Notes under the pieces: model-generated
What the model was told of the DNA's origin: nothing
The model's database searches: none
Seen by the model: the letters and a program-made list of their open reading frames with translations, nothing else
Translations under genes and position numbers: made by a program
In this document: one piece after another, positions 46,742-64,000 of the stretch
How the letters are laid out: every line of letters begins with the position of its first letter
How positions within the stretch are numbered: the first letter of the stretch is position 1
Assembly: GCA_937996235.1 (NCBI GenBank)
Contig: CALKVK010000015.1
Coordinates: 29,744 to 93,743 of the forward strand
DNA from: an uncultured bacterium
Lineage (GTDB): Bacteria; Planctomycetota; JAJSAM01; JAJVHW01
Length of the DNA: 64,000 nucleotides
Reading direction: 5' to 3'

Positions 46742-47806
46742 GTGAGCGCACCGAATCCTCTCTGGGGCATCCACGTGACGCGCGGCGCCGTGTGCGGCGC
46801 GTTCGTCCTGCGCGGCGACGACGGGCGCCACGAGGTGCTCGACGGCTTCGTCGAGACGACCGCGGACGCGCCGCGCGACGCGGTGCGTCGGGCGCTCGCG
46901 CGGCGCGAGGTGCGCGGGCGTCCCGCGTGGATCGCCGTCGGCGACGAGAGCTGCGCCGTGGGCACCGGCGAGATCGACCGCTCCGAGCTCGAGATGACGG
47001 ACGAGGAGGTCGTGTTCACGCTGCACGACTTCGCGCCGTTCGAGCCGGGCGAGGGCCAGCTCCTCTACCACCGCGTCGGCAGCGGCGAGGAGCGCCGCTA
47101 CATGGTGGCGGCGGTGCCCGCGGCCACGTCCGCCGCGTTCGCCTCCGTGGCCGCGGAGCTCGATCCCGCGCGGCACGGCCTCGGCCTCGCCTCGCCCGCG
47201 CTGGCGCGCGGCGTGCGCGCGCTCGGACTGGTCGGGCGTTCGGGGTACGCGGTGGACGTGCAGGACGACGTCACCCGCGTGCTGGCGTTCGACGGCGACC
47301 GCGTGCGCCGCTACCTCGTGGCGGCCGGGCTGCGCGAGCTCGCGCGCGACGGCGGCGCGGTGGCGCTCGCCCACGACCTCGTGCGCCTCGCGGACTACCA
47401 CCGCGAGCTCTCGCGCCGCGGCCCCGGCGGGCCGCGGCCGGACTTCGCGCTCGTCGGCGCCGGCGCCTCCCGCGCGCGCGCCGCGCTCGCGGCCGCGCTC
47501 GGGGAGCGCCTCGCGCCCGCCGCGTTCCGCTCGGAGCCGACCCACGCCCTCGACGGCGCGGGGGGCGGCGCGCTCGACGACGCGCGCGCAGTCGAGCTCG
47601 TCGGAGCGGTCGGCGCGGCGCTCGAGGCGCTCGGCGCGCCGACCGCGCGACTGCCGCTCGCCGACGTGCCCGCCGACGTGCCCGACCCGCCCGCCGGACC
47701 GTCACCGACCGTCCAGGCGCTGCTCGTGGCCGCGGCCGTCGTCGCCGTCGGCACGGCCGCACTCGGCGTGTGGATCGCCCTCGGACGCCCCGGCGCGCGG
47801 GGGTGA
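46742..47806 (+). CDS. Hypothetical cytoplasmic protein with a C-terminal TM anchor; possibly PilM/GspL-like (speculative)
   Basis: GTG start. ~320-aa soluble region (WGIHVTRGAVCGAFVLRGDDG...RRYMVAAVP) followed by a single TM helix VQALLVAAAVVAVGTAALGVWIAL at the C-terminus. Confidence 0.45.
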   Translation: MSAPNPLWGIHVTRGAVCGAFVLRGDDGRHEVLDGFVETTADAPRDAVRRALARREVRGRPAWIAVGDESCAVGTGEIDRSELEMTDEEVVFTLHDFAPFEPGEGQLLYHRVGSGEERRYMVAAVPAATSAAFASVAAELDPARHGLGLASPALARGVRALGLVGRSGYAVDVQDDVTRVLAFDGDRVRRYLVAAGLRELARDGGAVALAHDLVRLADYHRELSRRGPGGPRPDFALVGAGASRARAALAAALGERLAPAAFRSEPTHALDGAGGGALDDARAVELVGAVGAALEALGAPTARLPLADVPADVPDPPAGPSPTVQALLVAAAVVAVGTAALGVWIALGRPGARG

Positions 47807-48056
47807 GAGCGCCCCGCGGAGGGCGGCCCGCAGGCCGCGCGCGACGCGGCGACGCCGCCCGCGAGAGGCTTGGAAAAATGACAGACGGGTGACGCGCCCC
47901 ATCTAGTAGAACTCCCCGTCTAGGAAGACGTCGCGCGCTCGGGCCGTGCTCCGGGGGGTCGGGTTCACCCCCCGCGGGCGCGGCGCGAGAGCGCGTTGGG
48001 AAAACCCCACGGAAGGGCCCCGTCGCGAACGGGTCCAGCACAGGGAGGGGCTACGA

Positions 48057-50696
48057 ATGAAGACGCCTCGAGTTGCCGCAGCGCTTGCGCTCGCGGGCGC
48101 GGCGCTGTCTCTGGGGGCTTGCAAGAGCGGCGAGTTCCCCTTCTTCGGTAAGAAGAAGGCCGCCGCCCAGCCGGCCGCCAAGAAGGCGGACGACGCGCAG
48201 CAGCCCGCCGCGGCCTCGGCCACGGCCGTCGCCAAGCCTGCGTCGGACGGCGCGCCGTCGCTCGACGAGGTGCGCAAGGACCGGAGCGTCCGCGAGCAGG
48301 CCCGGCAGACGCTCGTCCAGAACTTCCTCAAGATGGGCGACGACGCCTTCGCGGCTTCGCGCTTCGAGGACGCCGAGTCGCACTACAACTCGGTGCTCGA
48401 CCTCGACCCGTCGAACGAGCACGCCCGCCGGCGCATGCAGCAGATCGGTGCGGCGCTCGGCAAGCGCGGCGTGACCGAGGGCGAGGCGATGGAGGGCGCC
48501 CGGGACCTGAAGACGGTCCAGGTGCAGCAGGCCAAGGCCGAGGTCGCCCGCCTGGTCGCCGAGGGCAAGGCGAAGGCGGCGGCCGGCGACATGGCCGGCG
48601 CGGTCACCCGGTACGAGCGCGCGCTCGTGATCGAGCAGCTCTACCCGCGCACGGTCGACTTCAGCCCGACGCCGGACGGACTGCGCGCCATGCTGCGCTC
48701 CGCACGCGAGTCGGCCGAGGCCTCGGCCGACGCCGCGCGCCGCAAGGTGCTCCAGGAGGCGCACGACCAGGCGCGCCTCGAGGCCGCGCGCCAGCGCGCC
48801 GCCCAGCAGTCGCGCGTCAACAACCTGCTCAAGCAGGCGAACGAGGCGATGGAGCGCCGCAACTACCAGCTCGCCGAGAACCTGTCGGCCGAGATCCTGA
48901 CCTCCGACCCGCTCAACGCGTCGGCGAAGCGCCTGCGCGAGATCGCCCGCGACGCCCGCATGGCGGACGCCGACGAGCGCCTCCAGGCGACGCTCCTGAA
49001 CGAGTGGAAGTACACGTTCGCCGACCTGCGCGAGGCGACGACGCCGCAGGTCGAGGAGTACACCTTCCCCGACACGTGGAACGAGGTGCAGGGGCTGCGC
49101 ACGGCGCCCTCGCTCTCGGTCTCCGCGGCCGGCGAGGAGGACGCGCGCTCGCGCGAGGTGCGCAACCGCCTCGCCGCGGCCCGCACGACGATCAGCTTCA
49201 CGGACGCGACGCTCGACGAGGCGGTCGAGTACCTCGGCCGCGTCTCGGGCACGAACATCGTCGTCATGAACGAGGCCCGCGAGGGCCGCTCCGACGACGA
49301 GCTCGCGATCACGCTCAAGCTCGACTCGGCCGAGTCGGTCGACAAGATCCTCGAGCTGATCGCGCAGTTCAAGGGCCTCGCCTGGACGGTCGAGAACGGC
49401 ATCGCCCAGATCACGACGCCCGAGGCCGCGCGCGGCAAGTCGATCGTCCAGATGTACGACATCAAGGACCTCGCGACGCCGATCGCGAACTTCCCCGGCG
49501 ACGAGATCAACCTCGACCCGCAGGGTGAGCACGAGGTCGAGGAGGAGGTCCCGGAGCCGGTCGCCGAGTTCACCGGCGACGCGATCAAGGACCTGATCGA
49601 GCAGAACGTCGACAAGACGGTCTGGGAGGAGGGCGGCTCGATCGACCTCCTCGAGCCGGGCACGCTGGTCGTCAAGGCCCCGGCCACGACGCACGCGAAG
49701 ATCCAGAGCCTGCTCGGCGGCCTGCGCGGCGCCGGCGGCCTCGAGGTCTCGATCGAGACGCGCTTCGTCACGGTCGAGGACAACTTCCTGCAGGAGGTCG
49801 GCGTCGACCTGCGCGGCCTGGGCGACCAGTCCGGCGGCATCGGCGTGGCCGGCAAGGGCGGTCTCGCCGGACCGGGCGGCATCTCGGTGCCCGTCACGTT
49901 CGACGACCTGTTCTTCGGCTCGGCCGGCAACCCGTCCGGCATCGGCACGGGCGGCGACACCGGCATCTTCTACAACCTCAACAGCGACGGCGACATCCGC
50001 GGTCGCTTCGAGAACCTGTTCGACGTCGCGCTGGGCCGCCAGGGCGTCCTGACGAACCTGGGCGGCTTCTCGTTCCAGGGCACGCTGATCGACGACACGC
50101 AGCTCGAGGTCATCCTCCGCGCCGTCGAGAAGAGCAGCCGGAACACGCTCGTCGTGGCGCCGCGCCTCACGGCCTACAACGGCCAGCGCGCGAACGTCAC
50201 GGTCCTGAACCAGATCTCGTACATCTCCGACTTCGACGTCGAGATCGCCCAGGCCGCGCAGATCGGCGACCCGATCGTGCAGACCCTGCGCGACGGCGTC
50301 ATCCTCGACCTGCGTCCGGTCGTCTCCTCGGACCGCCGCTTCATCACCATGGAGCTGCGCCCGACGATCGCGCTGCTGCAGCGCCCGATCGCGACCTTCC
50401 AGACCACGCTGGCGAACGGCCCGCCGGTCACGATCCAGCTCCCCGAGATCCAGATCCAGCGCGTCCGCACGACGGTCACCATGCCCGACAACGGCACGCT
50501 GCTCCTGGGCGGCATGAAGTTCTTCACCGAGCAGCGGCTGGACTCCAGCGTCCCGTGGCTCTCGGACATCCCGATCGTCAGCTTCTTCGTCTCGCGCAAG
50601 GCGACGTACCTCGAGAAGCGCAACCTGCTCGTGCTGATCCGCGCGCGCATCCTGCGTCCCGAGGAGAACGAGCCCGGCTCGACCGTCGGTCGCTGA
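48057..50696 (+). CDS. Lipoprotein secretin 1: TPR-like N-region plus STN-like domain plus GspD/PilQ-type secretin C-domain
   Basis: RBS AGGGAGGGG. Lipobox MKTPRVAAALALAGAALSLGAC. STN-like ISFTDATLDEAVEYLGRVSGTNIVV. Secretin motifs are RFVTVEDNFLQEVGVDL...VVAPRLTAYNGQRANVTV...LLLGGMKFFTEQRLDSSVPWLSDIPIVSFFVSRKATYLEKRNLLVLIRARIL. Confidence 0.8.
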   Translation: MKTPRVAAALALAGAALSLGACKSGEFPFFGKKKAAAQPAAKKADDAQQPAAASATAVAKPASDGAPSLDEVRKDRSVREQARQTLVQNFLKMGDDAFAASRFEDAESHYNSVLDLDPSNEHARRRMQQIGAALGKRGVTEGEAMEGARDLKTVQVQQAKAEVARLVAEGKAKAAAGDMAGAVTRYERALVIEQLYPRTVDFSPTPDGLRAMLRSARESAEASADAARRKVLQEAHDQARLEAARQRAAQQSRVNNLLKQANEAMERRNYQLAENLSAEILTSDPLNASAKRLREIARDARMADADERLQATLLNEWKYTFADLREATTPQVEEYTFPDTWNEVQGLRTAPSLSVSAAGEEDARSREVRNRLAAARTTISFTDATLDEAVEYLGRVSGTNIVVMNEAREGRSDDELAITLKLDSAESVDKILELIAQFKGLAWTVENGIAQITTPEAARGKSIVQMYDIKDLATPIANFPGDEINLDPQGEHEVEEEVPEPVAEFTGDAIKDLIEQNVDKTVWEEGGSIDLLEPGTLVVKAPATTHAKIQSLLGGLRGAGGLEVSIETRFVTVEDNFLQEVGVDLRGLGDQSGGIGVAGKGGLAGPGGISVPVTFDDLFFGSAGNPSGIGTGGDTGIFYNLNSDGDIRGRFENLFDVALGRQGVLTNLGGFSFQGTLIDDTQLEVILRAVEKSSRNTLVVAPRLTAYNGQRANVTVLNQISYISDFDVEIAQAAQIGDPIVQTLRDGVILDLRPVVSSDRRFITMELRPTIALLQRPIATFQTTLANGPPVTIQLPEIQIQRVRTTVTMPDNGTLLLGGMKFFTEQRLDSSVPWLSDIPIVSFFVSRKATYLEKRNLLVLIRARILRPEENEPGSTVGR

Positions 50697-51149: not shown

Positions 51150-54134
51150 ATGCCCCGCCGTTCGCTCCTCCCGCGCTTCGTCCTCGTGGTCGCCGGGCTC
51201 GTCGCGGCCTGCGGCATCGCCCACGCGTACGAGGACGACTTCGAGTTCGCGCAGGCGCTGGCGGACCGCGGCTACACCGACCTCGCGGAGCAGCAGTTCC
51301 GGGCCCTGCTCTCGGACCCGAAGCGCAGCGCGAAGGAGAAGGCCGAGGGGCAGTACGGGCTCGCGATCATCAAGCGCATCGACGCGCTCGCAGCGGCACG
51401 CGAGACGAGCGAGCGGCGCCGCAGGCCGCTGAAGGAGGTCCTCGACCTCTTCCGCCAGGCCGACGCGGCGATCGCCTCGTTCATCGAGGCCAACGCCGCG
51501 CACCAGCGCGTGCTCGAGGCGAAGCTCGACCGCGCGAACCTGATCACCGACCGCGCCAACTACATCAACCTCGCGATCGAGCGCGGCTGGCTGCCGGCGG
51601 ACGTCTCCGAGGGCGATCTGCAGAAGGAGGTCGCGCAGGGCTACGACACGGCGATCTCGCTCCTGCAGGCCGTGCAGGACAAGGCGAAGAAGGACGTCGA
51701 GGGCAAGGCGCTCGGCACCGAGGAGTACGAGGACGCGCAGGAGCGCCTGGGCCTCGTGTGGCTGCACCGCATCGTGGCGCTGTACGGCAAGGGCGCCGCG
51801 CTGCCGCGCGGCGACACGAGCGGCGTCGCCGCGCTGAACGCGGCGATCTCCGAGGTCACCGACTACCTGTGGTCGTTCGACGGCACGCTGCGCGGCCTGT
51901 GGGCCTCGTACTACGGCGGGCTCGCGAACTGGAAGCTCGACCGGACGACGGACGCCGTGCGCGACATGGGCGACGTCACGGGGTACGTGAGCGAGTCCGA
52001 CGGCGTCCCGGCGGCGCGCGGCGTCTCGCTGCAGGCGTACGAGATGCTCGGCACGATCGCGCTCGACGCCGCCGACCGCAAGGGCGAGGAGGAGCTCGCG
52101 CGCACGGCGCTGGCGCGCCTCGACCGCCTGCCCGGACAGTGGCCGACGTACCTCGACGACGCCGCCGGGCAGCGCGCGGCGGTGTCGCGCGCACGTCTCC
52201 TCGCTCGTGCGCAGCGCACGCGCGAGGCGATCGAGCTGCTGCAGAACGTCCTGAAGAAGGCCGACGAGAAGCACACGGGCGTCGACGGCGCCGCGGGCGA
52301 GCTGCTCGCCGAGCTCCTCACGTCGACCGCGTCGGGCGGCGTCAAGCTCGACCCGGCGCTCCTGAACAGGATCGCGATCGCGAAGTGGCGCGACGGCGAC
52401 TACCCCGGTGCGATCCGGGCGTTCCAGGGCGTCATCGGTGCGTGCCGCACGCCCGAGCAGCGCGACGAGTTCGCGTGGGACGCGTGGGACTACATCGGCC
52501 GCTGCTACGGCATCGAGGAGCGCTGGTACGAGGCGTTCCTGGCGTTCGACGCCATCGAGAAGGCGTGGCAGGCGGACCAGAAGAGCGCGAAGCTCGCCGA
52601 GATCACGCAGGAGACCGGCTGGAACCGCGCGCAGGTCGTCGGCAAGCTCGGCATCGTCACGAAGGACGCGGCGGAGTCGGCGCGGCTCAAGGCGTGGGCG
52701 AAGGAGCTCCTCGACGAGTTCGCGCGCAACCACCCGGAGAGCCCGCGCAACCAGGGCGCGGAGCTGCAGGCCGCGACCGAGAAGCTGCGCGACGCGCAGG
52801 GCATGCGGCGCACGGGCGACTACGCCGGCGCCCTCGCCAAGTACGACGAGGCGATCGCCGCCCTCACCGCGACCGACAAGGGCAGCAGCCAGATCGACAA
52901 GGTCGAGGCGCTGATCGCGCAGGCGCGCCGCGAGACCGCGCGCTGCCTGCACGAGCAGAAGGACGACGCCGGCGCGGTCAAGGCGCTCGACGAGGCGCTG
53001 CGGCTGTCGCGCGCGTGGCTCGCGAAGCAGCGCCCCGCGGCCGAGGTCTCGACGGTGCGCCAGGCGCGCGCCGCCGGCGAGTCCATCGCGCTCACGAACA
53101 TCCTGACCGCACTGGCGGAGAAGGCCGACTACGTCGCGCAGGACCAGCGCAAGGCGGTCTTCGAGGAGCTCCTGAAGGAGATCGACGCCAAGGGCGCCGA
53201 CTTCCTGCGGGCCGTGAGCCGCGGCCAGACCCTGCTCGACCAGTGGCGCACGGAGGCGCTGATCGGCACGGACCAGGTCGAGAAGGCGGAGAAGCTGCTG
53301 CAGGACCTGCTCGCCAAGGACCCGGATCTGGCGAACGGCCCCTACCTCGCCGCGCTGGTCGCGCGCGCGCTCGAGACCGAGGCCAACACCTGGCTCGACA
53401 AGGGCGACGAGGGCCGCTACCGCACGCTCATGCTGCGCTCGGCGCGCCTGCGCGAGTACGCGATCACCAAGGCGGGAGACCCGAGCCCCGAGTCGTACCT
53501 CTCCCTCGCCTCCACCTTCCGGAAGTCGGGAGACCTCGAGAAGGCCGAGGAGTACTACCGCAAGGCCCAGGAGGCCTACGCGGGGCGCGGCGACGACGAG
53601 CGCGCCCGCGCCGTGCGGCTCGAGCTGATCAACCTGCTCGTGGACCAGCGCAAGTTCGAGGACGCGATCCGGCCGCTCGAGGTCGAGCTCGTCCCCGACC
53701 AGGGCGCGCGCCTCGCCGTGCTCGACCGCCTCGCGAAGGACGACAGCCTCACGAAGGAGGAGCTCGAGAAGCTCCTCGAGACGATGTCGCGCAACCGGCG
53801 CGTGCTCGACGTGCTGGCGCGCGCGTACGTCGAGGCGGCGCGCGACGACAAGGACCTGCTGCGCTCCGTCAACCTGACGAACGTGCTGCTGTACTGCCAG
53901 CCCGACGAGGACAAGTACGGTCCCGACTGGGTCGAGTACCAGCTCCGCCTCTCCACGGCCTACTTCAAGTACGGCGCGCTGAAGAACGACCCCGAGGCCT
54001 TCAAGAAGGTCGAGCGGCTGATCCAGACGCGGCTGGTCGTGCAGAACCTGCTCGACACGTGCAACCAGCTCGTGCCGGGCTCGAAGAAGAAGTTCGAGGA
54101 CCTGCTCGCCCGCGCGAAGAGCGGGGGCAGGTAG
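51150..54134 (+). CDS. Large (994 aa) all-helical TPR-like lipoprotein
   Basis: Signal plus lipobox MPRRSLLPRFVLVVAGLVAACG. There are many TPR/Sel1-like helical pairs, e.g. YAGALAKYDEAIAAL...LSLASTFRKSGDLEKAEEYYRKAQEAY. The R-rich 77 codons upstream in the track ORF were rejected. Confidence 0.65.
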   Translation: MPRRSLLPRFVLVVAGLVAACGIAHAYEDDFEFAQALADRGYTDLAEQQFRALLSDPKRSAKEKAEGQYGLAIIKRIDALAAARETSERRRRPLKEVLDLFRQADAAIASFIEANAAHQRVLEAKLDRANLITDRANYINLAIERGWLPADVSEGDLQKEVAQGYDTAISLLQAVQDKAKKDVEGKALGTEEYEDAQERLGLVWLHRIVALYGKGAALPRGDTSGVAALNAAISEVTDYLWSFDGTLRGLWASYYGGLANWKLDRTTDAVRDMGDVTGYVSESDGVPAARGVSLQAYEMLGTIALDAADRKGEEELARTALARLDRLPGQWPTYLDDAAGQRAAVSRARLLARAQRTREAIELLQNVLKKADEKHTGVDGAAGELLAELLTSTASGGVKLDPALLNRIAIAKWRDGDYPGAIRAFQGVIGACRTPEQRDEFAWDAWDYIGRCYGIEERWYEAFLAFDAIEKAWQADQKSAKLAEITQETGWNRAQVVGKLGIVTKDAAESARLKAWAKELLDEFARNHPESPRNQGAELQAATEKLRDAQGMRRTGDYAGALAKYDEAIAALTATDKGSSQIDKVEALIAQARRETARCLHEQKDDAGAVKALDEALRLSRAWLAKQRPAAEVSTVRQARAAGESIALTNILTALAEKADYVAQDQRKAVFEELLKEIDAKGADFLRAVSRGQTLLDQWRTEALIGTDQVEKAEKLLQDLLAKDPDLANGPYLAALVARALETEANTWLDKGDEGRYRTLMLRSARLREYAITKAGDPSPESYLSLASTFRKSGDLEKAEEYYRKAQEAYAGRGDDERARAVRLELINLLVDQRKFEDAIRPLEVELVPDQGARLAVLDRLAKDDSLTKEELEKLLETMSRNRRVLDVLARAYVEAARDDKDLLRSVNLTNVLLYCQPDEDKYGPDWVEYQLRLSTAYFKYGALKNDPEAFKKVERLIQTRLVVQNLLDTCNQLVPGSKKKFEDLLARAKSGGR

Positions 54135-54152: not shown

Positions 54153-55316
54153 ATGCCGACGACCCGGAACACGCTCATCCGCCCTGCCGCCGCCCTGGCG
54201 CTCGCCTTGGCGCTCGGCTCACCGGCGCGCAGCGCGGACGACCACGCGGCCGCCGCCGGTCCGCCGCCGGACACGATCGTGTACGAGGACGGCGGCGAGC
54301 AGAAGTCGCGCACCGACGTCGTCGTCGAGAGCGCCGACTGGGACGCCGTCGCCTACAAGGCCGGCGCGCGCTCCGCGTCGCAGCCGGGCAACACGGTCGT
54401 CGAGGTGCGCTGGGGCGACGCGCCCCCGGAGTACGCCGTCGGCTGGCGCGCCGTCGCAGGTCGCGACGGTGCCGCCGCCCGCGACGCGTTCAACGCGTGC
54501 CTCGCCGCGAAGGCGGCGGGAGTGGTCTCGCGCCCGTGGATCGACGAGTACGCGCAGATCGGCCTCGGCGAGGCGTGCCTCCTGCTCGCCGCCGCCGAGA
54601 AGGGCAAGACGTCGGCGGCCGTCGACGCGTTCACCGCGGCGCAGAAGGCGAACCCCAAGAGCCTGATGGCGGATCGCATCCTGAAGGGGCTGGCCGAGGC
54701 CGCGCTGATCGCGGGCAAGCCGGACGAGGCGCGCAAGCAGAGCGACGCGCTCCTCTCGGCGGGCCGCACCGCGCGGCGCCCGGAGTGGGAGATCGACGCC
54801 CTCTTCCTGCGCGCCGACATCGCGCGTCAGGCGAAGAACCCGGCCGAGGTCTCGCAGGCGTACGAGGAGGCGGCCCGCGTCGCGGAGCAGCAGGCGGGCG
54901 CCGCGCGCGCCCCGGCGGAGCGCCAGCGCTTCGAGCGCCTGCGGCGCCGCGCGGCGGCGTCCGCGGGCTGGGTGCTCGTGGACCAGGCGCTCGAGACCAA
55001 GGCCCCGGCCGACTTCGACCGGGCACGCGACTACTTCCAGGGCCTGCCGGGCAAGCTCGGACAGGTGCCGGAGGTCCTCTCGTCGGTCGAGAACGCGACG
55101 GGCGTGATCAAGCTCGCCGCCGGCGACACGTTCGGTGCGCTCCACCACTTCCAGACCACCGAGGTGCTGCACTTCGGCGTTCCGGACGAGGTGGCGCGGT
55201 CGCTGTGGTACCAGGCCGAGTGCTGGGACAAGCTCGGCGACACCGCACAGAGGGACGCGCGGCTGCGCGACCTTCGCAAGTACTATCCCAAGTCAGAGTG
55301 GGCCCGGAGGAAGTAG
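54153..55316 (+). CDS. Periplasmic TPR-repeat protein (387 aa)
   Basis: Signal MPTTRNTLIRPAAALALALALGSPARSA. It ends in TPR-like helices (...ARSLWYQAECWDKLGDTAQRDARLRDLRKYYPKSEW). Confidence 0.6.
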   Translation: MPTTRNTLIRPAAALALALALGSPARSADDHAAAAGPPPDTIVYEDGGEQKSRTDVVVESADWDAVAYKAGARSASQPGNTVVEVRWGDAPPEYAVGWRAVAGRDGAAARDAFNACLAAKAAGVVSRPWIDEYAQIGLGEACLLLAAAEKGKTSAAVDAFTAAQKANPKSLMADRILKGLAEAALIAGKPDEARKQSDALLSAGRTARRPEWEIDALFLRADIARQAKNPAEVSQAYEEAARVAEQQAGAARAPAERQRFERLRRRAAASAGWVLVDQALETKAPADFDRARDYFQGLPGKLGQVPEVLSSVENATGVIKLAAGDTFGALHHFQTTEVLHFGVPDEVARSLWYQAECWDKLGDTAQRDARLRDLRKYYPKSEWARRK

Positions 55317-56146: not shown

Positions 56147-56671
56147 ATGGCGAAGAAGCGCACGACTGCGGAGGCCGGGAAGGACGTCGAGGGCGGGGCC
56201 GAGATGGACATGACCCCGATGATCGACATCACCTTCCAGCTCATCGTCTTCTTCCTCGTCGCGAACGACCTGACCCGCAAGGAGGTCGAGGAGCTCAAGC
56301 TCCCGCAGGCGATCTACGGCAAGGAGGACAAGGCGACCGAGAAGGACCGCCGTGTGATCATCAACATCCTCGCCCCGGAGGACAGGGCGAACCCGCCTGA
56401 CATCCCCGAGGTGAAGGTCAAGGGCAAGCCCTACGGACTCGACGACCTCGAGCGTCTGATGCGCACCGAGGCCGACTCGAAGCGCGAGACGGACGGTCCG
56501 GGTGCGCCGAGTGCGATCTTCGTTCTGATCCGCGCCGACAAGGACACGCCGTGGCAGCACGTCCAGTACGTGATGCAGGTCTGCGCCGACCCGTCGATCC
56601 GCATCTACAAGATGCAGTTCGCGACGACGAAGCGTGACGACGGCAAGGCCACGTCGGCGAGCGGTGAATAG
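56147..56671 (+). CDS. exbD: ExbD/TolR family protein (paralog 1)
   Basis: MDMTPMIDITFQLIVFFLV TM region plus a periplasmic ExbD domain. Confidence 0.85.
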   Translation: MAKKRTTAEAGKDVEGGAEMDMTPMIDITFQLIVFFLVANDLTRKEVEELKLPQAIYGKEDKATEKDRRVIINILAPEDRANPPDIPEVKVKGKPYGLDDLERLMRTEADSKRETDGPGAPSAIFVLIRADKDTPWQHVQYVMQVCADPSIRIYKMQFATTKRDDGKATSASGE

Positions 56672-56680
56672 GAGCATCCC

Positions 56681-57199
56681 ATGAACGAAGAAGAGATGCC
56701 GAAGCCGAACATGACGCCGATGATCGACGTCGTGTTCCAGTTGCTGGTCTTCTTCCTCGTCTCGATGAAGTTCAAGACGCTGGACATGAAGATCGAGGCG
56801 TTCCTGCCGAAGGATCGCGGGCTTTCGCCCGAGATCGCGACGCTCGAGGAGAAGCCCAAGATCACCGCTGTGCTCAAGCGGAAGGTCGAGGGCGGAGGCC
56901 TCGAGAACAGCACGCGCATCCGTGTGCAGAACGCCACCCTCGGAACCGGCGACAAGCAGGAGACCTGGGATCTGCTCACGCAGCAGGCCAAGGCGCTCCT
57001 CGACCGCCACAAGGCGAACGGCGGCGCTGCGGAGGACGTGAAGGGCGAGGTCGATGCCTCGGCCCTCGTGCCCACGGGCGACGTCGTGCGTGCGGTGGAC
57101 GCGTTCCTCGCCGCCGGACTCCAGGACGTGACGTTCATCGGCACGCCCCCCCCGAACTCGAACCTGGCGAAGATCCGCAAGGCCGCGGGCACTCGCTGA
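56681..57199 (+). CDS. exbD: ExbD/TolR family protein (paralog 2)
   Basis: PNMTPMIDVVFQLLVFFLVSMKFKTLDMKIEAFLPK. Confidence 0.85.
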   Translation: MNEEEMPKPNMTPMIDVVFQLLVFFLVSMKFKTLDMKIEAFLPKDRGLSPEIATLEEKPKITAVLKRKVEGGGLENSTRIRVQNATLGTGDKQETWDLLTQQAKALLDRHKANGGAAEDVKGEVDASALVPTGDVVRAVDAFLAAGLQDVTFIGTPPPNSNLAKIRKAAGTR

Positions 57200-57389
57200 G
57201 GGTTCAGGACCCCGTATCGACCCCTTGCGCACACTCCGTGCCGCCCCGGCCCTGCCGGGGCGGCACACCGCGCTGCCTCCCCTGCCTGCCTGATCCCGAG
57301 TCGTGAGCGGGTGCTCGCGCGACGGCGCGACGCCCTCCCCCACCGCCTGTCCCGTCCCCGGCCGCGCGCGCGAGCGCAGGAGGCCGGAC

Positions 57390-57902
57390 GTGAGACGCCG
57401 ACGCGAAACCGACTCGAACCGCGACGCCACGGCGGCGTCGCCGGACCTGACGCCCCTCGTGGACGTCACCTTCCAGCTCCTCGTGTTCCTGCTCGTCGTG
57501 AACGACATCACGGCCCGGCAGAACGAGGAACTCGTGCTGCCGGAAGCGCAGCACGCGACCGAACTGCGCCCCGACGACGCGACGTGCACGGTCAACGTGC
57601 TCGCGCCCACGGACCCCGCGGACGACGCCGCGCCGCCGCGCGTGCGGGTGTCCGGGCGGACGCTCGACCTGCCGGATCTCGTCGACACGCTGCGCGCGTT
57701 CGCGGACCGCGAACGTGACGGCCGCGAGCCGCGCGCGCCGAGCGCGTCGGCCGTCCTGATCCGTGCCGACGCGGGCGCTCCGTGGCGCCACGTCCAGCTC
57801 GTCATGCAGGCCTGCGTCGACGACGACGTGCGCATCGTGCGCGTGCAGTTCGCGACGCGCGGCCCGGCCACCGAACCCAGCCGAGAGGAGGCACGCCGAT
57901 GA
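57390..57902 (+). CDS. exbD: ExbD/TolR family protein (paralog 3, divergent)
   Basis: GTG start with GGAGG 7 nt upstream. DLTPLVDVTFQLLVFLLVVNDI. The C-terminus RADAGAPWRHVQLVMQACVDDDVRIVRVQFAT parallels paralog 1. Confidence 0.7.
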   Translation: MRRRRETDSNRDATAASPDLTPLVDVTFQLLVFLLVVNDITARQNEELVLPEAQHATELRPDDATCTVNVLAPTDPADDAAPPRVRVSGRTLDLPDLVDTLRAFADRERDGREPRAPSASAVLIRADAGAPWRHVQLVMQACVDDDVRIVRVQFATRGPATEPSREEARR

Positions 57903-58354
57903 ACGACGACACACTCCCCCGCCCGAACATGACGCCGATGATCGACGTCGTCTTCCAGCTCCTGGTCTTCTTCCTCGTGTCGATGAAGTTCAAGACGCTC
58001 GACATGAAGATCGAGGCGCAGCTGCCGAAGCAGGTCGGGCTGAGCGACACGTTCGTCGATCCGCCGCCCGTCACACGCGTCTCGGCCCGGCTGGTCCGCA
58101 GCGGCCGGGCGACCGACCTGCGTCTCGACGGGCAGCGCCTCGGCACGGCCGACGATCCCGCGACGTGGGGGCGGCTCGCCGCATCGGCGCGCGGCATCCG
58201 CGCGCGGCACCTCGGCGCCGGTCTCGCGCCCGACGACCTCGTCGCGGAGGTCGACGGCAGCCGCGACGTCGCGACCGGCGACGTCGTGCACGCCATCGAC
58301 ACGCTGTTGGCAGCGGACATCGGGAACGTCCAGTTCCGCGGTGCCCGTCGGTGA
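57899..58354 (+). CDS. exbD: ExbD/TolR family protein (paralog 4)
   Basis: ATG overlapping the upstream stop (ATGA). PNMTPMIDVVFQLLVFFLVSMKFKTLDMKIEAQLPK. The 5' 96 nt are ~94% identical to paralog 2. Confidence 0.8.
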   Translation: MNDDTLPRPNMTPMIDVVFQLLVFFLVSMKFKTLDMKIEAQLPKQVGLSDTFVDPPPVTRVSARLVRSGRATDLRLDGQRLGTADDPATWGRLAASARGIRARHLGAGLAPDDLVAEVDGSRDVATGDVVHAIDTLLAADIGNVQFRGARR

Positions 58355-58391
58355 GAGGCACACCGCGTGCGAAGCACGCGGTGCGCCTCTC
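58353..58391 (+). terminator. Strong intrinsic terminator hairpin after the exbB-exbD x4 operon
   Basis: 18-bp stem GAGAGGCACACCGCGTGC / GCACGCGGTGCGCCTCTC (one mismatch) with a GAA loop. It overlaps the stop codon. Confidence 0.6.
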
Positions 58392-58668: not shown

Positions 58669-60552
58669 ATGCCGTCGCGTTCCGGTCCGCTGGTGGTCGT
58701 CGCGCTCTGCGTGGCGGGCGTCGTGGCGACCGCGCTCGCCTTCGTCTGGCGCGCGGAGCGACGCCCCACCGCCGTCGTCCTCATCAGCATCGACACGCTC
58801 CGCGCCGACCACGTGGGCGCCATCGCGGCGGCGACGGGCACCGACGGTGCTGCGGATCTGACGCCGCACCTCGATGCGCTCGCCGCCCGCGGCGCCGTCT
58901 TCACGCGGGCGTGGACGACCGCGCCCCTGACGGTCCCGGCGCACGCCAGCCTGCTCACGGGGCTCGTGCCGCCCGTGCACGGGCTGCGCACGAACTCCGG
59001 CGCGGCACGCATCCCGCCTGCCGAGACGCGGCGCTACCCGACGGTCGCCGAGGCGCTCCACGAGCAGGGCTGGCGCACCGGTGCGTTCGTCTCGGCGTCC
59101 GTCCTCCGCGCCGACCGCACGGGCCTCGCGGCCGGCTTCGACGTCTACGACGACGTCCCCGCCGCCGCCCCCGGGGCCCTGCACGACGCGGAGCGGCGCG
59201 CCGAGGAGACGGTCGCCGCGGCGCTCGCATGGCTCCGAGGCGGCTCCGGCAGCACGTTCCTGTGGGTGCACCTGTTCGACCCGCACGCTCCCTACGCCGC
59301 ACCGCAGCCCTGGGGCGCCGGCGCCGAGCACTCCGCGGACGCGACGGGGTACGCCGGCGAGGTCCGCTACGTCGATCATGCCGTCGGGCTCCTGCTCGAC
59401 GGACTCGCCGCCGCGGGCTACCGCAACGCCGCCGTCGTCGTCGTCGCGGACCACGGAGAAGCGCTCGGCGAGCACGGCGAGCCGACCCACGGCTTCCTGC
59501 TCCACGAGGCGACGCTGCACGTGCCGCTCCTCGTCGCTGCGCCCGGACTCGTGGCCGCAGGCCTCGTCCGCGAGGACCCGGTCTCGATCGCGGACGTCGC
59601 GCCGACGCTCCTCGGCTTCGCCGACGTGCCGGTGCCTCCGGGGCTCGGCGGGCGGCCGCTGTTCGCCGCCGGCGCACCGGGCGAGCGCCGGGCGCCCTAC
59701 GCCGAGTCGCTCTACGGCTGGGAGACCGCGCGCTGGGCGCAGGTGTTCGCGCTCCGCGACGGCGACCGCAAGCTGGTGGACGCGGGCCCGCACACGCTCG
59801 AGGCCGACCTCGCCCGCGACCCGCGCGAGCTCGCCGTCACCAGGCGCGCGGTCCCGTCGCCCGGGACCCCGCCCGCGGACGCGACGGCGGCCGCCGCGGA
59901 GCGCGACGTCGTCGAGTCCCTCCGGTCGGTCGCCGCCCTGCCGCCCTTGGACGCCCCGTCGGCCGCCGCAGCGCCGGAACTCGCGGGCGGCTCGTACTGG
60001 GCACCCGCCGGCACGGGAGCGACGACGATCCTCTCCCGCGCCGAGAACGCCGCCCTGCCGAGCCCCTACGACCGGATGGACGTCGTCCGCGAGCTCGACG
60101 CCGCCCGCGCGCTCCTCGCCGGGGGCGACCCCGCCCGCGCCGTGACCGCGTTCGCGGCGGTCGTCGCGCTCGACCCGGCGAACCCGCAGGCCCGCCAGTG
60201 GCTCGCACGGGCCCGGCTCGGAGCCGGCGACCCGCTCGGCGCGGCGGCCGACTTCCGGGCGGCGTTCGGGCTGGGCTGGCAGGACGCAGCCTGCGTCGCG
60301 AAGGCGCTGCAGGCCTCGGCGGCCGGCGTCGAGTCCGACCCCGAGGAGGCCGGGCGTGCCCTGAAGTTCCTGGAGGAGGCGCGCGGGAAGGGCCTCCGGA
60401 GCGACGGTCCCGTGTACGTGTTCGAGGCGCTGCTCCTGGCCGCGGCCGGACGGACGGACGCCGCCCGCCGCGCCCTCGCGGCGGCGCGCCGCGAGCCCCC
60501 GACGCCCTGGCTCGAGAAGGCCGTCCGGGAGCTCGGCGAGGCGCTGCGATGA
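58669..60552 (+). CDS. Membrane-anchored sulfatase/alkaline-phosphatase-superfamily protein with a C-terminal TPR domain
   Basis: TM LVVVALCVAGVVATALAFVW. VVLISIDTLRADHVG ... PAHASLLTG ... HLFDPHAPY ... VVVVADHGEALGEHG are sulfatase/LTA-synthase-type metal-site motifs. TPR-like helices follow from ~aa 480. In-frame alternative starts exist at 58576 and 58630. Confidence 0.7.
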   Translation: MPSRSGPLVVVALCVAGVVATALAFVWRAERRPTAVVLISIDTLRADHVGAIAAATGTDGAADLTPHLDALAARGAVFTRAWTTAPLTVPAHASLLTGLVPPVHGLRTNSGAARIPPAETRRYPTVAEALHEQGWRTGAFVSASVLRADRTGLAAGFDVYDDVPAAAPGALHDAERRAEETVAAALAWLRGGSGSTFLWVHLFDPHAPYAAPQPWGAGAEHSADATGYAGEVRYVDHAVGLLLDGLAAAGYRNAAVVVVADHGEALGEHGEPTHGFLLHEATLHVPLLVAAPGLVAAGLVREDPVSIADVAPTLLGFADVPVPPGLGGRPLFAAGAPGERRAPYAESLYGWETARWAQVFALRDGDRKLVDAGPHTLEADLARDPRELAVTRRAVPSPGTPPADATAAAAERDVVESLRSVAALPPLDAPSAAAAPELAGGSYWAPAGTGATTILSRAENAALPSPYDRMDVVRELDAARALLAGGDPARAVTAFAAVVALDPANPQARQWLARARLGAGDPLGAAADFRAAFGLGWQDAACVAKALQASAAGVESDPEEAGRALKFLEEARGKGLRSDGPVYVFEALLLAAAGRTDAARRALAAARREPPTPWLEKAVRELGEALR

Positions 60553-60637: not shown

Positions 60638-61062
60638 GGATTGAATGGTTGACCTCGTGTCCGAGCGCTGGCTAGCATCCGCGACTCGGGCACGGCCGGG
60701 CAGGCTCCGGATGCAGATCGGGAGAGGGTCCGGCAGGCTCGCGTGAGGCGGAGCAGCAGAGCGGCCGGATGGGCCGCGAGGCGGCCGTCGGGCGCGGGCC
60801 GGGGCACGTGACCGGACCGAAGGAACGGAAGGGCATGTCCTCCTCGATGGCGAGGAGGGCCGGAGGGAGGCCGCGCAGGCCGCCCCTCGTGGCCCGGCGA
60901 TCCAGCAGGATCGACGGGCGTGCAGGGCAGAGCCGGGTCGCTGATGCGATCCCGGACGGGAAGGACGGGCCCGGACAGGAAGAACGGGCACGGCGCCGTG
61001 CGGCCTCCGGGCTCGCACGTGGGCCGGTGCCTCCGCTGCGGAGGCACGTCACTCAGGTTTTT
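60638..61062 (+). ncRNA. Putative long GGA-rich leader or small RNA upstream of secretin 2
   Basis: Candidate promoter TTGACC - 17 - CTAGCAT (60638..60672). A ~380-nt purine-rich tract carries ~14 GGA motifs, including tandem 16-mers GGAC(G/A)GGAAG(G/A)ACGGG at 60954..60987. It ends with a 9-bp hairpin GTGCCTCCG-CTG-CGGAGGCAC (61027..61047) and TTTTT (61058..61062), ~110 nt before the ATG. Confidence 0.25.
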
Positions 61063-61173
61063 GGGCTGGAGCTTTCAGGGCAACGCGACCGGCGCGTCCG
61101 GCCGCAGTCCCGGGGCGTGCGGACGCGGGGTCCGACGCGCACCGGCACACCTCGACGGGAAGGGCAAGCACCT

Positions 61174-64000
61174 ATGACGGACTCCCGGACTCGTTCTCTG
61201 ACCCTCGTGGCCGCGCTGGCGACGATCGGCATGGTGGTCTCGGCGGCCTCCTGCACCGGTCCTGCGGACAAGAAGGCCGAGAAGCCGAGCAAGGCCTCGC
61301 CGGCGGTCGCGAAGGGCGACAAGACGTCTGCCATGCCGGGCGGCGGCGGCACGACCGCTGCGGGCGCCCCGGCGGCCGCGCCCGCGGACGGCGGCGCGAC
61401 GACGTCCGGGAAGCCGGCGACGCCTCCCGCGGCGCCTGCGGCTCCGGGCGGCACCGCGGCGAAGCCGGCGACCCCGGCGACGACGACGCCCGTCGCCCCG
61501 GCCGCGACGACCGCGCGCGCCGACGGCGGCCCGGTCGCCCCGCCCAAGCCGGGCGCTCCGCTGCCGGCGCCGGTCCCGCCGCGCGGCGGCCGCGACTCCG
61601 GCGCGACCACGCCGGTCCCGCCGGCCCCCACGGCCGAGAAGCCGACGACTCCGCCCGCCCCGCCCGCGCCGACGGCGACCGGCCCGACGCCGCCGCGTCC
61701 CGTGCCGCCGGCTCCGACGACGACCACGCCGCCCGTCGCGCCGCCGCCCGCCCCGCCGGCTGCGCCGACCGCGACCACGCCGAAGCCCGTCGAGCCGAAG
61801 CCCGCACCGGTCGCGACCGCGCAGAGCGAGGCCGATGCGCTCCTCGCGCAGCGCATCAAGGAGCTCGAGCTCGAGCGGCAGAAGAACGCGATCCTCGTCG
61901 AGGACTACGTCGCCCACGCCCGTGAGGCGGCGAAGCGCTTCGACCACGAGTCGACGGCCGACTGGGCGTCCCGCGCGCTCGAGCTCGACCACTCGAACCA
62001 GGAGGCCGAGAGCCTCCTGCGCACGGCGCGCGCCGCGATGGGCGAGCGCGACTCCGACATCGCGAGCCTCGCCGAGCTGCTGTCGCGCACGGCCTCGGTG
62101 AAGCGCGAGCAGGCGCAGTTCCAGGCGCAGCGCTACTGGACCTCCGCACAGGAGGCGAAGAAGGGCGGCGACTTCGCGAAGGCCGAGCAGGACCTCGAGA
62201 GCTGCCTGACGGTCATCGAGCACGATCCCTCGGGCATCAACTGGGGCGCGATGCCGACCTCGGTGCGCAACGAGCTCGCGGACGTGCGGAAGCTGCGCGC
62301 CGACGCCGACAAGGCCGCACGTGCCAGCGCCGCCCGCGACGCCTACAAGTCGGTCAAGGAGGAGGAGGCCCGGCGCCGCCTCGCCGAGGTCGAGAAGCGC
62401 AACGCGCTCTTCGAGGCCGCGATGACGGCGTTCGAGAACGAGCAGTACGCGTCGGCCGAGACGCTCCTGCAGGACTACCTCGCACTGGTGCCCGGCGACA
62501 CCAACGCGCAGCAGCTCCTCGCCACGGCCACGCGCGCGAAGCACGAGCGCGCGTCCGAGGAGTCGCTCAAGCTGCAGCGCGAGCGCTTCCGCGAGTGGCG
62601 TCTCGACATGCGCGAGACGACCGTCCCCTACCACAAGATCCTCAACTGGCCGTCGCAGGAGCACTGGGACCGCATCACGCAGCTCCGCGCGGACGCGGGC
62701 GTGCTCGCCGACCGCGAGCCCGACTCGCCCGACACCGCGGCGACGAAGAACAAGCTGCGCAGCGAGCGCGTCACCTTCCAGTTCCAGGGCGCCGAGTTCG
62801 CGGAGGTCATCCGCTACATCGCCGACACGCGGCAGATGAGCATCGTGATCGACCCGCAGGTCGCGCAGGAACTCGAGGCGATCCCGATCACCCTGAACCT
62901 GCAGGGCGTCGCGGTCGAGGAGGCGCTCAAGACGATCAACCGGATCGCCGGCGGCCTGACCTACGTGGTGAAGGGCGGCGTCGTGGTGATCACGAAGCCG
63001 GAGTTCGCCCGCGAGGACCCGATCGTCCAGGTGCACTCGGTCGGCGACCTGACCGTCGCGCTGACGAACTTCATCGCGCCGAACCTCCAGCTCCGCCCGG
63101 CCGGCGCCGAGGAGAACGAGGACGCGCCGATGTTCGGTGCCGCGCAGGAGGGCGTGACGTCCTTCGGCGACACCGACGCGCTGATGACGCTCATCCAGGG
63201 CAACGTCGCCGACCCCGACTACTGGACGGCCGACGGCGTGAGCATCGCGCCCTCCGGCACCGACAAGCTCGTCGTCGTCGCGGCGCCGAACGTCCAGCGC
63301 GAGGTCTCCGCGTTCCTCGACGACCTGCGGGCCTTCTCCGGCCTCGTCGTGACGATCGAGACGCGCTTCCTGACCGTCACCGACGACTTCCTGCGCGATG
63401 TCGGCATCGACATCCGCGGCATCGGCAACGGCACGCCCGGCCGCCTCGCGCTGCTCGACGACGTCACGAACGGCCTGCTGAACAACGCGTCGGCCGGCTT
63501 CGACAACGGCGGCGTGGGCCTGCCCGCGAACGCGAGCTCGGCTCCGTCGGCCGGCGCCTTCTACAACAACAACTCCGACGGCGACTACCGCGCCCGCACG
63601 GAGAACGTGTTCGACCAGGCGCTCGGCACGCGCATCACCAACATCGGCGGCGCCGTGCTGCAGTACACGCTGGTCGACGACACCGACCTGTCGCTGATCC
63701 TGCGCGCCGTCGAGAAGAGCCAGGAGGGCCGCGTCCTCCAAGCGCCGAGCGTGACGGTGTTCAACACCCAGCGCGCCAACATCACGCTGATCAACCAGCT
63801 CACGTTCGTGCAGGACTTCGACGTCGAGGTCGCCCAGACGGCGTTCATCGCCGACCCGATCATCGGCATCATCCAGGACGGCGTGGTGCTGGACGTGCAG
63901 CCCACGGTCAGCCACGACCGCAAGTACATCACCCTGCAGCTCCGCCCGACGATCGCGAACCTCGTGCGCCCGATCCCGACGTTCACCACGTCGCTCGGCG
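61174..64000 (+). CDS. Lipoprotein secretin 2 (paralog of 48057..50696); 3' end beyond the window
   Basis: Lipobox MTDSRTRSLTLVAALATIGMVVSAASC. ~190-aa P/T/A-rich spacer (…KPVEPKPAPVAT). STN-like VTFQFQGAEFAEVIRYIADTRQMSIVI. Secretin motifs are RFLTVTDDFLRDVGIDI...VLQAPSVTVFNTQRANITLINQ...VLDVQPTVSHDRKYITLQLRPTIANL. The frame is open to the window end, and the gene is not in the track because it has no stop. Confidence 0.8.
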   Translation, partial: MTDSRTRSLTLVAALATIGMVVSAASCTGPADKKAEKPSKASPAVAKGDKTSAMPGGGGTTAAGAPAAAPADGGATTSGKPATPPAAPAAPGGTAAKPATPATTTPVAPAATTARADGGPVAPPKPGAPLPAPVPPRGGRDSGATTPVPPAPTAEKPTTPPAPPAPTATGPTPPRPVPPAPTTTTPPVAPPPAPPAAPTATTPKPVEPKPAPVATAQSEADALLAQRIKELELERQKNAILVEDYVAHAREAAKRFDHESTADWASRALELDHSNQEAESLLRTARAAMGERDSDIASLAELLSRTASVKREQAQFQAQRYWTSAQEAKKGGDFAKAEQDLESCLTVIEHDPSGINWGAMPTSVRNELADVRKLRADADKAARASAARDAYKSVKEEEARRRLAEVEKRNALFEAAMTAFENEQYASAETLLQDYLALVPGDTNAQQLLATATRAKHERASEESLKLQRERFREWRLDMRETTVPYHKILNWPSQEHWDRITQLRADAGVLADREPDSPDTAATKNKLRSERVTFQFQGAEFAEVIRYIADTRQMSIVIDPQVAQELEAIPITLNLQGVAVEEALKTINRIAGGLTYVVKGGVVVITKPEFAREDPIVQVHSVGDLTVALTNFIAPNLQLRPAGAEENEDAPMFGAAQEGVTSFGDTDALMTLIQGNVADPDYWTADGVSIAPSGTDKLVVVAAPNVQREVSAFLDDLRAFSGLVVTIETRFLTVTDDFLRDVGIDIRGIGNGTPGRLALLDDVTNGLLNNASAGFDNGGVGLPANASSAPSAGAFYNNNSDGDYRARTENVFDQALGTRITNIGGAVLQYTLVDDTDLSLILRAVEKSQEGRVLQAPSVTVFNTQRANITLINQLTFVQDFDVEVAQTAFIADPIIGIIQDGVVLDVQPTVSHDRKYITLQLRPTIANLVRPIPTFTTSLG

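Follow-up and report, generated by a model that had tools for sequence, protein, structure and literature searches.

What might an ExbB/ExbD motor do when its genes lie between those of two secretins? The question is raised by positions 46742-64000 of a 64,000-nucleotide stretch of DNA from an uncultured bacterium of the phylum Planctomycetota (contig CALKVK010000015.1; the whole stretch is referred to below as the window). Here, an ExbB-family proton-channel subunit and four ExbD proteins are encoded together with two secreted tetratricopeptide-repeat (TPR) proteins, and this set is flanked by genes for two lipoprotein secretins. The reading that we favour, at a probability of roughly 45%, is that a Tol/Exb-type motor module driven by the proton-motive force (PMF) took two self-piloting secretins of the type IV pilus kind as its outer-membrane partners, to which it is physically and functionally coupled. 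Functional coupling is suggested because all of the products are envelope proteins, the genes are tightly packed, the surroundings of the block are reshuffled between genomes, and a motif in secretin 2 is conserved.

A conserved block of envelope genes

Every gene that the original prediction had listed is present, in the order listed and on the + strand, with coordinates that agree exactly or to within a few codons, as judged from Pfam matches and base composition. Because the G+C content of the window is about 75%, real genes were selected by their G+C content at each codon position, and the third-position values (GC3) of the cluster genes, 0.83-0.97, are of the coding type. The features of the cluster are as follows, with their lengths in amino acids (aa) where these are used as names.

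46742-47806, +, gX, predicted remote PilM homologue with a C-terminal transmembrane (TM) helix (profile of orthologues against the PDB)
48057-50696, +, secretin 1, lipoprotein (PF00263, 2e-24)
51150-54134, +, "big", 994-aa secreted TPR solenoid (Pfam TPR matches, AlphaFold2 model)
54153-55316, +, "tpr", 387-aa secreted TPR protein (TPR_12/TPR_6)
55406-56140, +, ExbB/TolQ-family proton-channel subunit (PF01618, MotA_ExbB, 3.5e-25)
56147-56671, +, ExbD 1, or ExbD-A1 (PF02472, 1.9e-17)
56681-57199, +, ExbD 2, or ExbD-B1 (PF02472, 2e-14)
57390-57902, +, ExbD 3, or ExbD-A2, with an alternative GTG start at 57303 (PF02472, 8.4e-16)
57899-58354, +, ExbD 4, or ExbD-B2 (PF02472, 1.3e-12)
58353-58391, +, GC-rich 18-bp hairpin without a T-tract (inverted repeat I1)
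58669-60552, +, TM-anchored sulfatase-fold/TPR protein (Sulfatase 4.5e-38, Phosphodiest 3e-13, TPR_19 2e-7)
61174-64000, +, secretin 2, lipoprotein, running past the window end (Secretin match cut by the window end)
61291-61338, +, short linear motif in the secretin 2 tether (alignment of the N-termini of P0029-P0045)

A genome scan with an ExbB alignment returned 43 related loci (L-numbers below), nearly all from uncultured Planctomycetota, and these were annotated with hidden Markov models derived from the block. The order sec1-big-tpr-exbB-exbD_A-exbD_B-(exbD extras)-(sulfatase)-sec2 recurs among them. The informative set comprised 26 species-level loci from metagenome-assembled genomes with at least 7.5 kb upstream and at least 5 kb downstream of exbB; secretin 1 lies upstream and secretin 2 downstream of the motor in 20 of these, and in one more (L040) genes of the secretin 2 type occupy both sides. 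The gene tables of L001-L004 give the same order at 33-75% secretin identity, and the order persists at deep divergence, with identities of 33-39% for the secretins, 18-25% for big, 22-35% for tpr and 46-59% for ExbB. When the exact gene set was looked for in relatives, as the original prediction had suggested, it thus proved to be a conserved block and not a chance juxtaposition.

The limits of the block can also be read from these loci. In relatives it ends at secretin 2, followed by a HAD hydrolase gene and then by unrelated genes, and the neighbours beyond the HAD gene and beyond the uracil-DNA glycosylase (UDG) gene on the other side differ between loci (L001-L004). All block products carry a signal peptide, a lipobox or a TM segment; the flanking UDG and HAD proteins carry none. 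In L031, the gaps from stop to stop are at most about 130 nt all the way from sec1 to HAD. Translational coupling within the motor genes of the window, as originally predicted, agrees with the spacing of starts and stops: the exbB stop and the exbD 1 ATG are 6 nt apart, the exbD 1 TAG and the exbD 2 ATG are separated by 9 nt that include GGAG, and exbD 3 and exbD 4 overlap in ATGA.

The motor and its periplasmic partners

The ExbB protein exceeds the PF01618 cut-off by a wide margin (88.6 vs 22.9 bits), has an N-terminal signal-like segment, and is 46-84% identical across the 43 loci. Against the NCBIfam models its best match is TolQ (2.7e-19, 69.8 vs 221 bits), followed by ExbB (2.3e-11, 43.9 vs 206.2 bits). 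The ExbD proteins score 20-31 bits against cut-offs of 127-216, again with the Tol member of the family, TolR, as the best model (21-31 vs 127 bits). The essential TM aspartate, in the context P-[ML]-[IV]-D (MTPMID in ExbD-A1), is kept in every ExbD-A and ExbD-B, duplicates included.

The ratio of one ExbB to four ExbDs, which the original prediction had treated as characteristic, holds for the window as a gene count and fails as a general feature. The four ExbDs form two A/B pairs, in which D1 and D3 share 42% identity and D2 and D4 52%, the A and B types being about 20% identical to one another. ExbB together with both ExbD types is kept in nearly all of the related loci. Two ExbDs (A and B) is the commonest number; three occur in L005, L007, L009, L014, L022 and L039, and four or more only in the window, L006, L008 and L011. 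Sequence comparison thus points to a recent, lineage-specific tandem duplication of an ancestral A/B pair, and the four ExbDs per ExbB are the least general feature of the locus. The two pairs also differ in other respects. Identity to the L002 orthologues is 79% for D1, 70% for D2, 53% for D3 and 49% for D4, so that the duplicated pair (57390-58354) evolves about twice as fast as D1/D2 (56147-57199), and its G+C content at codon positions 1 and 2 is 0.77/0.56, compared to 0.62/0.39 in D1/D2.

The TPR proteins predicted at 51150 and 54153 are both confirmed by Pfam TPR matches. Both have a cleavable signal peptide, and neither has a TM anchor of the kind found in TonB and TolA. The AlphaFold2 (AF2) model of big is an all-alpha solenoid of 44 helices (pLDDT 91), for which Foldseek returned generic long TPR scaffolds; the bacterial matches, the periplasmic scaffold of the Campylobacter flagellar motor (9hmf_K, 1.6e-6) and SprE of the type IX secretion system (T9SS; 6.6e-6), are only TPR scaffolds of stator-driven envelope machines, which speaks for the coupling of motor and secretins. 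These are long TPR proteins that stand between a PMF stator and an outer-membrane assembly, in the case of SprE/PorW together with PorLM/GldLM, and the TM-scores of about 0.2-0.25 make this a generic solenoid likeness and an analogy of role, not homology. On the basis of the model, big may be described as a putative periplasmic scaffold or connector. Its family is small, with 131 representative clusters among 1.84 billion proteins. The original description of big as a lipoprotein does not hold across the family: the lipobox cysteine is not kept, and most orthologues have ordinary signal peptides of the signal peptidase I type. These cleavable signal peptides also led us to reject big as an inner-membrane-anchored substitute for TonB.

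The smaller protein, tpr, begins with a small conserved beta-rich segment followed by TPRs, and its orthologues carry a signal peptide. Its C-terminus resembles CpoB/YbgF, weakly in NCBIfam (tol_pal_ybgF, E 0.009, 16.6 vs 90.1 bits) and, among many generic TPR matches, when a profile (A2) was run against the PDB (CpoB 6g5s 9e-10, YbgF 2xev 5e-6, BamD 7e-5). Fold and profile searches with big and tpr returned generic TPR relatives only, from which no specific function can be read.

Both TPR proteins belong to the motor, since their near-contiguous or overlapping genes travel with it even where secretins are missing. In L044 (JBBIVY010000010.1, 6013-18305), TPR949-TPR371-ExbB-ExbD-A-ExbD-B is followed by at least three von Willebrand factor A (VWA) proteins, with a second ExbD-A/B pair encoded after the first two; in L047, from Phycisphaerae, a 381-aa protein, ExbB, two ExbDs and TPR948 are encoded, with no secretin. 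Because the module occurs in these two loci without secretins, it is not intrinsically a secretin motor, and big-tpr-exbB-exbD_A-exbD_B is older and more widespread than its link to secretins.

The two lipoprotein secretins

The secretins are paralogous to each other, sharing 36% identity along some 830 aa (E 2e-140); secretin 2 is 1034 aa at full length, as in P0029. The lipobox of secretin 1 (LGAC) is kept in 21 of 21 orthologues, and the lipobox cysteine of secretin 2 in essentially all full-length ones. In the AF2 model of secretin 1 (mean pLDDT 67, domains 80-95), the cysteine is followed by a disordered linker, a TPR/helical region at about aa 69-327, N0-like and N3-like domains at about 375-470 and 505-560, respectively, and the secretin domain. 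The predicted layout of secretin 2 is similar: a lipobox, a Pro/Ala/Thr-rich tether of about 190 aa, then helical/TPR, N0, N3 and secretin domains.

Foldseek searches with the secretin 1 model returned solved structures from every secretin class, best of all BfpB (3e-16) and the competence-pilus PilQ of V. cholerae (4e-14); its best PDB match by sequence (phmmer) is f1 pIV (1e-10). The best NCBIfam match of secretin 1 is the Amuc_1098 family (117.6 bits vs a cut-off of 750), and secretin 2 matches MshL (4e-26), PilQ (7e-22) and GspD (5e-21), all under cut-off. The two secretins reach none of the equivalogs PilQ, GspD, MshL, Amuc_1098, SctC and PilN, the MshL scores being 87-92 vs 250 bits. Amuc_1098 of Akkermansia, described as PilQ, likewise consists of a BamD/pilotin-like TPR domain fused to a secretin, and exceeds all other outer-membrane proteins in abundance (PMC4960237). 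Secretin homologues were found only in metagenome bins of Planctomycetota. P0022 and P0028, TPR-secretins of more distant kinship (23-26% identity), have no ExbBD nearby, so the link between secretin and ExbBD is specific to the present clade.

The original prediction had noted two features of these secretins that recall TonB. The first, an STN-like domain in both, stands as a sub-threshold resemblance: the secretin N0 region scores 24.3 vs 24.4 bits for FecR_C, 21 vs 27 for GspD_N0 and 14-17 vs 28.4 for STN, with secretin 2 giving 21 bits for GspD_N0, 20.9 for FecR_C and 16.6 for STN. In the secretin 1 model, aa 375-470 form an alpha/beta domain (pLDDT 80-88). This is most likely an ordinary secretin N0 domain, and its likeness to STN gives no special link to TonB. 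The second, a KP/EP-type spacer like that of TonB or TolA in secretin 2, was not borne out, as the tether is rich in Pro, Ala and Thr and has no (EP)n or (KP)n repeat of the TonB type.

What the tether does contain is a conserved motif, KASPAVAKGDKTSAMP (also written KTTGPAIAKGDK), at aa 40-55, 13-28 residues past the lipidated cysteine. Alignment of the N-termini after the cysteine (P0029-P0045) gives the consensus K-T-[ST]-G-P-A-[IVL]-A-K-G-D-K-x-x-x-x-P; the rest of the tether varies in length and sequence among orthologues. Peptides of this sort are bound by TPR domains, and the motif may serve to dock a TPR domain or ExbD, which is offered as a lead and not as a result.

A proposed mechanism

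Gene content, family assignments, conserved order and envelope-targeting signals are shown by the data, and to arrive at a coupled system we infer four further things: physical contact between motor and secretins, a direction of transport, the lack of a TonB, and energisation of the secretins by the PMF. The core would consist of ExbB with the dissimilar ExbD-A and ExbD-B, probably as an ExbB5 ring around an A/B dimer, by analogy with 5:2 motors. Two secreted TPR proteins, a solenoid of about 970 aa and a CpoB-like protein of about 390 aa, would join this stator, and in the present clade the module would have gained as probable partners two paralogous lipidated secretins, each with a pilotin-like TPR region, N0 and N3.

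In such an assembly, proton flow through ExbB/ExbD would be turned into conformational work in the periplasmic domains of the ExbDs. The soluble TPR proteins, in place of TonB or TolA, would carry this work across the periplasm to the tether, TPR or N0 region of the secretins, and the secretin channels would be gated, positioned or helped to assemble for the passage of macromolecules across the outer membrane. In the present lineage, the ExbD pair was tandem-duplicated, possibly giving one stator variant per secretin, and a PilM-like inner-membrane protein and the sulfatase-fold/TPR protein were added.

A stronger form of the proposal, which we consider unlikely, is that the block is an ATPase- and TonB-independent secretin machine in which ExbB5/ExbD-A/ExbD-B uses the proton gradient to open or drive two lipid-tethered channels via soluble TPR adaptors. 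Here, the adaptors could grip the secretins by the short docking peptide or by their TPR/N0 region, and the machine could serve macromolecule uptake or act as an outer-membrane tether or channel specific to the Planctomycetes-Verrucomicrobia-Chlamydiae (PVC) group. How planctomycetes carry out "selfish" polysaccharide import is an open question (PMC11131199).

Evidence against coupling and the type IV filament alternative

Several observations weigh against the coupling of motor and secretins. Two of the 26 informative loci (L009 and L011) have the downstream secretin only, three (L042, L044 and L047) have none, and the subclade formed by L009, L011, L013, L014 and L018 has no secretin 1 upstream of big. 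The unrelated UDG and HAD genes are nearly as syntenic as the secretins, so synteny alone is no proof of shared function. In the window itself, gaps of 453 and 621 nt with promoter-like sites part the secretin genes from those of the motor, and together with the hairpin after exbD 4 they suggest that the secretins form transcription units of their own. The occurrence of the TPR-TPR-ExbB-ExbD-ExbD module without secretins in L044 and L047 counts in the same direction, as does the gX gene, described next: a PilM homologue beside secretins with type IV pilus affinities fits a type IV filament system that is powered by ATP and has its genes elsewhere.

The gX protein had been described as a PilM/GspL-like, TM-anchored cytoplasmic protein. 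Neither gX of the window nor five orthologues matched Pfam or NCBIfam, and a homologue search of a large protein database returned the query itself only. A profile (A3) built from eight orthologues matches PilM chains, and no others, in the PDB (2ych 2.1e-7, 5eou 5e-5, 5eox 1e-4, 3jc8 1.2e-3), the 2ych match spanning profile positions 58-306 of 367. Together with the C-terminal TM helix, these PilM-only matches agree with the earlier description, and identify gX, as far as profile similarity can, as a remote PilM homologue with a predicted cytoplasmic actin-like domain and a TM helix, in a PilM-PilN-like layout. Window gX (354 aa) ends just past this helix, without a periplasmic part. That of L001 (813 aa) has a periplasmic extension, which is a separate gene in L012 (1515-2843), L015 (1533-2546) and L016 (1873-2838). 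This separate gene, lying after the PilM-like gene, encodes a TM-anchored protein with a fibronectin type III (FN3)-like segment that equals the C-terminal part of L001 gX, and occurs in some members of the subclade lacking secretin 1 and of the neighbouring subclade. gX is found in one subclade only, and is absent from L004 and from most of the distant loci; there, secretin 1 comes immediately after UDG.

PilM also figures in the best placed of the alternatives, which we hold to be doubtful. It holds that the secretins are ordinary type IV filament or type II secretion system (T2SS)-like channels whose ATPase, platform and pilins lie elsewhere, and that TPR-TPR-ExbB-ExbD-ExbD is a separate Tol-like system for envelope maintenance; any link between the two would be at most indirect, the motor being needed, for example, to keep the outer membrane intact or to build the secretins, much as pili or transformation suffer from TonB/ExbB mutations in some proteobacteria. 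The secretin half of this explanation draws on gX as a PilM homologue, on the best family match of secretin 1 being Amuc_1098, whose annotation is that of an outer-membrane protein of the type IV pilus, and on BfpB and PilQ as its best structural matches; the TPR-secretin fusion of Akkermansia is treated as PilQ (PMC4960237) and shares with secretin 1 the N-terminal BamD/pilotin-like TPR domain. The separation of the two halves is favoured by the secretin-free modules of L044 and L047, by the distant TPR-secretins that are orphans without ExbBD, and by the gaps and promoter-like sites just described. At 118 bits against a cut-off of 750, however, the block's secretin is not a member of the Amuc_1098 family. 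The block also departs from PilMNOPQ in having two paralogous secretins around an ExbB/ExbD motor, and in having no separate PilN/O/P, no PilB/T/C and no pilins nearby; searches out to about 10 kb revealed neither PilN/O/P nor an ATPase or pilin in any of the loci. PilM is missing in most of the clade, where the two-secretin arrangement is still kept, and with identities down to 33% the motor remains between two secretins in about 21 of the 26 loci.

The Tol half of this alternative draws on the preference of the ExbB and ExbDs for TolQ/TolR and on the resemblance of the 387-aa TPR protein to CpoB/YbgF, and, as in Tol-Pal, all of the proteins belong to the envelope. Against this, TolA, TolB and Pal were not found in the block, either in the window or in L001-L004, the family scores are far under the cut-offs, and the block has a TPR solenoid of about 970 aa and two secretins instead.

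TonB and other motor-driven systems

The original prediction had noted that the window encodes neither a TonB C-terminal or TolA domain nor an ATPase or pseudopilin of the T2SS or type IV pilus (T4P), and this was upheld. Pfam searches of the tested open reading frames (ORFs) of the 64-kb window gave no TonB_C, TolA, TonB-dependent receptor (TonB_dep_Rec/Plug), GspE/PilB or pilin. For L001-L004, the precomputed Pfam annotation contains no TonB_C, TonB_dep_Rec or Plug, and neither a GspE-type Walker A nor a prepilin motif occurs in any ORF, be it in the window or in the 43 related loci. The worry that a complete T2SS, T4P or Tad locus or a tonB might lie just beyond the window found no support in the flanks of about 10 kb in relatives, which have neither. 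Such absence in cis is itself weak evidence for a system that works without TonB or an ATPase, because these genes are often unlinked in well-studied bacteria: tonB and exbBD are unlinked in E. coli, as are pilMNOPQ and pilB/pilT in P. aeruginosa. Of the PMF-energised, TonB-less apparatus that was originally proposed, the conserved gene set with neither TonB nor ATPase in cis stands, and energisation of the secretins remains part of the model.

An unlinked tonB is the premise of a further alternative, which we regard as very unlikely: the motor would be a canonical TonB-type system serving receptors elsewhere, and the secretins, TPR proteins and sulfatase-fold protein would be mere neighbours kept by a stable chromosomal region. 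The block does share with TonB-ExbB-ExbD of E. coli one PF01618 ExbB and a PF02472 ExbD with the TM aspartate, encoded side by side with translational coupling, and presumably the output, mechanical work on an outer-membrane protein. Arrangements of exbB-exbD1-exbD2 with two ExbDs are common in other phyla, and, as the example of UDG and HAD makes plain, synteny in this region can extend to unrelated genes. Set against these points, the ExbB and ExbD proteins miss the NCBIfam equivalog cut-offs widely (43.9 vs 206 bits and 20-31 vs 127-216 bits), two dissimilar ExbD types are accompanied by two fixed TPR partners and secretin neighbours, and the TPR genes stay near-contiguous with the motor even in L044 and L047. 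A TonB, with its TM anchor, Pro-rich rod and TonB_C domain, and a TonB-dependent receptor are missing from the 64 kb and from the relatives' flanks of about 10 kb, and the regions past UDG and HAD are rearranged with the block intact.

A third comparison is with Agl-Glt/Nfs of Myxococcus, a PMF-driven machine spanning the envelope and distinct from both TonB and Tol, in which a TolQ/TolR-like motor is combined with TPR proteins and outer-membrane components (PMC3169522). The shared logic consists of one TolQ-like and two distinct TolR-like subunits, multiple periplasmic TPR proteins and an outer-membrane module, a likeness that rests on the kinds of genes and not on homology to AglR/Q/S or to the TPR proteins. 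Agl-Glt belongs to another phylum, and the outer-membrane part of the block is formed by secretins; in the block (window and L001-L004), no GltG/GltJ proteins with TonB_C and no extra beta-barrel genes of the GltA/B/H/K type were found. That the block is a gliding or surface machine of this kind, its motor driving a TPR scaffold that moves the secretins or a surface polymer, is the most remote of the explanations, as it also lacks cytoplasmic partners of the AglZ/MglA type and all secretins known to us are static multimeric channels. An anti-phage system like Zorya was rejected, as the ExbB/ExbD proteins do not have the ZorA/B architecture, their partners are all envelope proteins, and no nuclease or effector genes are present.

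In essence, the block shares parts with TonB, Tol-Pal, the type IV pilus/T2SS and Agl-Glt, and fails at least one defining feature of each. No description of a cluster of secretins with ExbBD/TolQR in Planctomycetota was found in the searchable full-text literature. The novelty thus lies in an undescribed, conserved combination of known modules; its coupling and function are part of the model, so the system is not categorically new.

Accessory and neighbouring genes

The sulfatase-fold/TPR gene is limited to the subclade of the window (10 of the 43 related loci). The protein joins a domain of the alkaline-phosphatase/sulfatase fold to C-terminal TPRs. It has TVPAH where the Cys/Ser nucleophile motif would be, and all NCBIfam sulfatase equivalogs score far under cut-off; on these two grounds, a role as a true arylsulfatase or formylglycine sulfatase was rejected as unlikely.

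After exbD 4, the original prediction had placed a strong terminator. What is found is a GC-rich hairpin of 18 bp (58353-58391) directly 3′ of the exbD-B2 stop, its arms 94% complementary around a 3-nt loop; it has no T-tract, and a terminator scan made no call. It is possibly a transcript end or a processing site.

Two genes precede gX on the same strand.

44867-45817, +, EamA transporter (Pfam)
about 45820-46674, +, family-4 uracil-DNA glycosylase (domain match)

By their Pfam matches, the 46 kb upstream of the cluster consist of housekeeping genes. These include MreB/MreC, FtsY, MoeA, a Wzy-TPR protein, a glycosyltransferase, an APS kinase, Der and Opp components, as well as arginine decarboxylase, two GroEL, a radical-SAM/HEAT protein and PurD. 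MreB and MreC (1354-3583, -) are thus present in this lineage of Planctomycetota, and in L004 MreB lies about 1 kb downstream of the block; their presence bears on questions of cell shape and division in the phylum. An O-antigen-ligase (Wzy_C)/TPR fusion (9720-12308, +) is followed by a gene with three CarboxypepD_reg repeats (12109-14106, +), with a GT4 glycosyltransferase and APS kinase nearby (14975-17012, -), and the region is possibly a surface-polysaccharide cluster. Two Cpn60/GroEL paralogues lie side by side (28862-30583 and 30927-32819, -). An ORF of 1171 aa (37585-41100, +) joins HEAT repeats to a C-terminal radical-SAM domain, an unusual architecture, and is overlapped by a long antisense ORF of the kind typical at such G+C content. 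Two further large ORFs have no Pfam match: one of 521 aa (27013-28578, +), and one of 786 aa (34360-36720, -) whose G+C content of 0.95 at the first codon position implies either a protein very rich in Gly, Ala and Arg or no real gene.

Significance

To our knowledge, all characterised secretins work with cytoplasmic ATPases, as in the T2SS, the type III secretion system and type IV pili, or with phage assembly proteins, and all characterised ExbB/ExbD or TolQ/TolR stators act through a membrane-anchored arm like TonB or TolA. Where a stator, secretins and soluble TPR proteins are conserved as a set and both kinds of partner are missing in cis, these two well-studied modules may be wired together differently. 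The features of most interest are the conserved A/B pair of ExbDs, the two obligatory soluble TPR partners that replace the TonB/TolA arm, and the paired lipoprotein secretins.

Should the coupling not be real, the block would still be a clade-specific Tol-like module, TPR970-TPR390-ExbB-ExbD-A-ExbD-B, and the self-piloting TPR-secretin family would still merit proper annotation. If it is real, the envelope machines known to run on the PMF (TonB, Tol, Mot, Agl-Glt and T9SS) would be joined by another, and if the stronger, ATPase- and TonB-independent form were true, this would be the first PMF-energised secretin. For the Planctomycetota, whose envelope biology is poorly understood, a coupled system would provide a concrete candidate for macromolecule traffic across the outer membrane.

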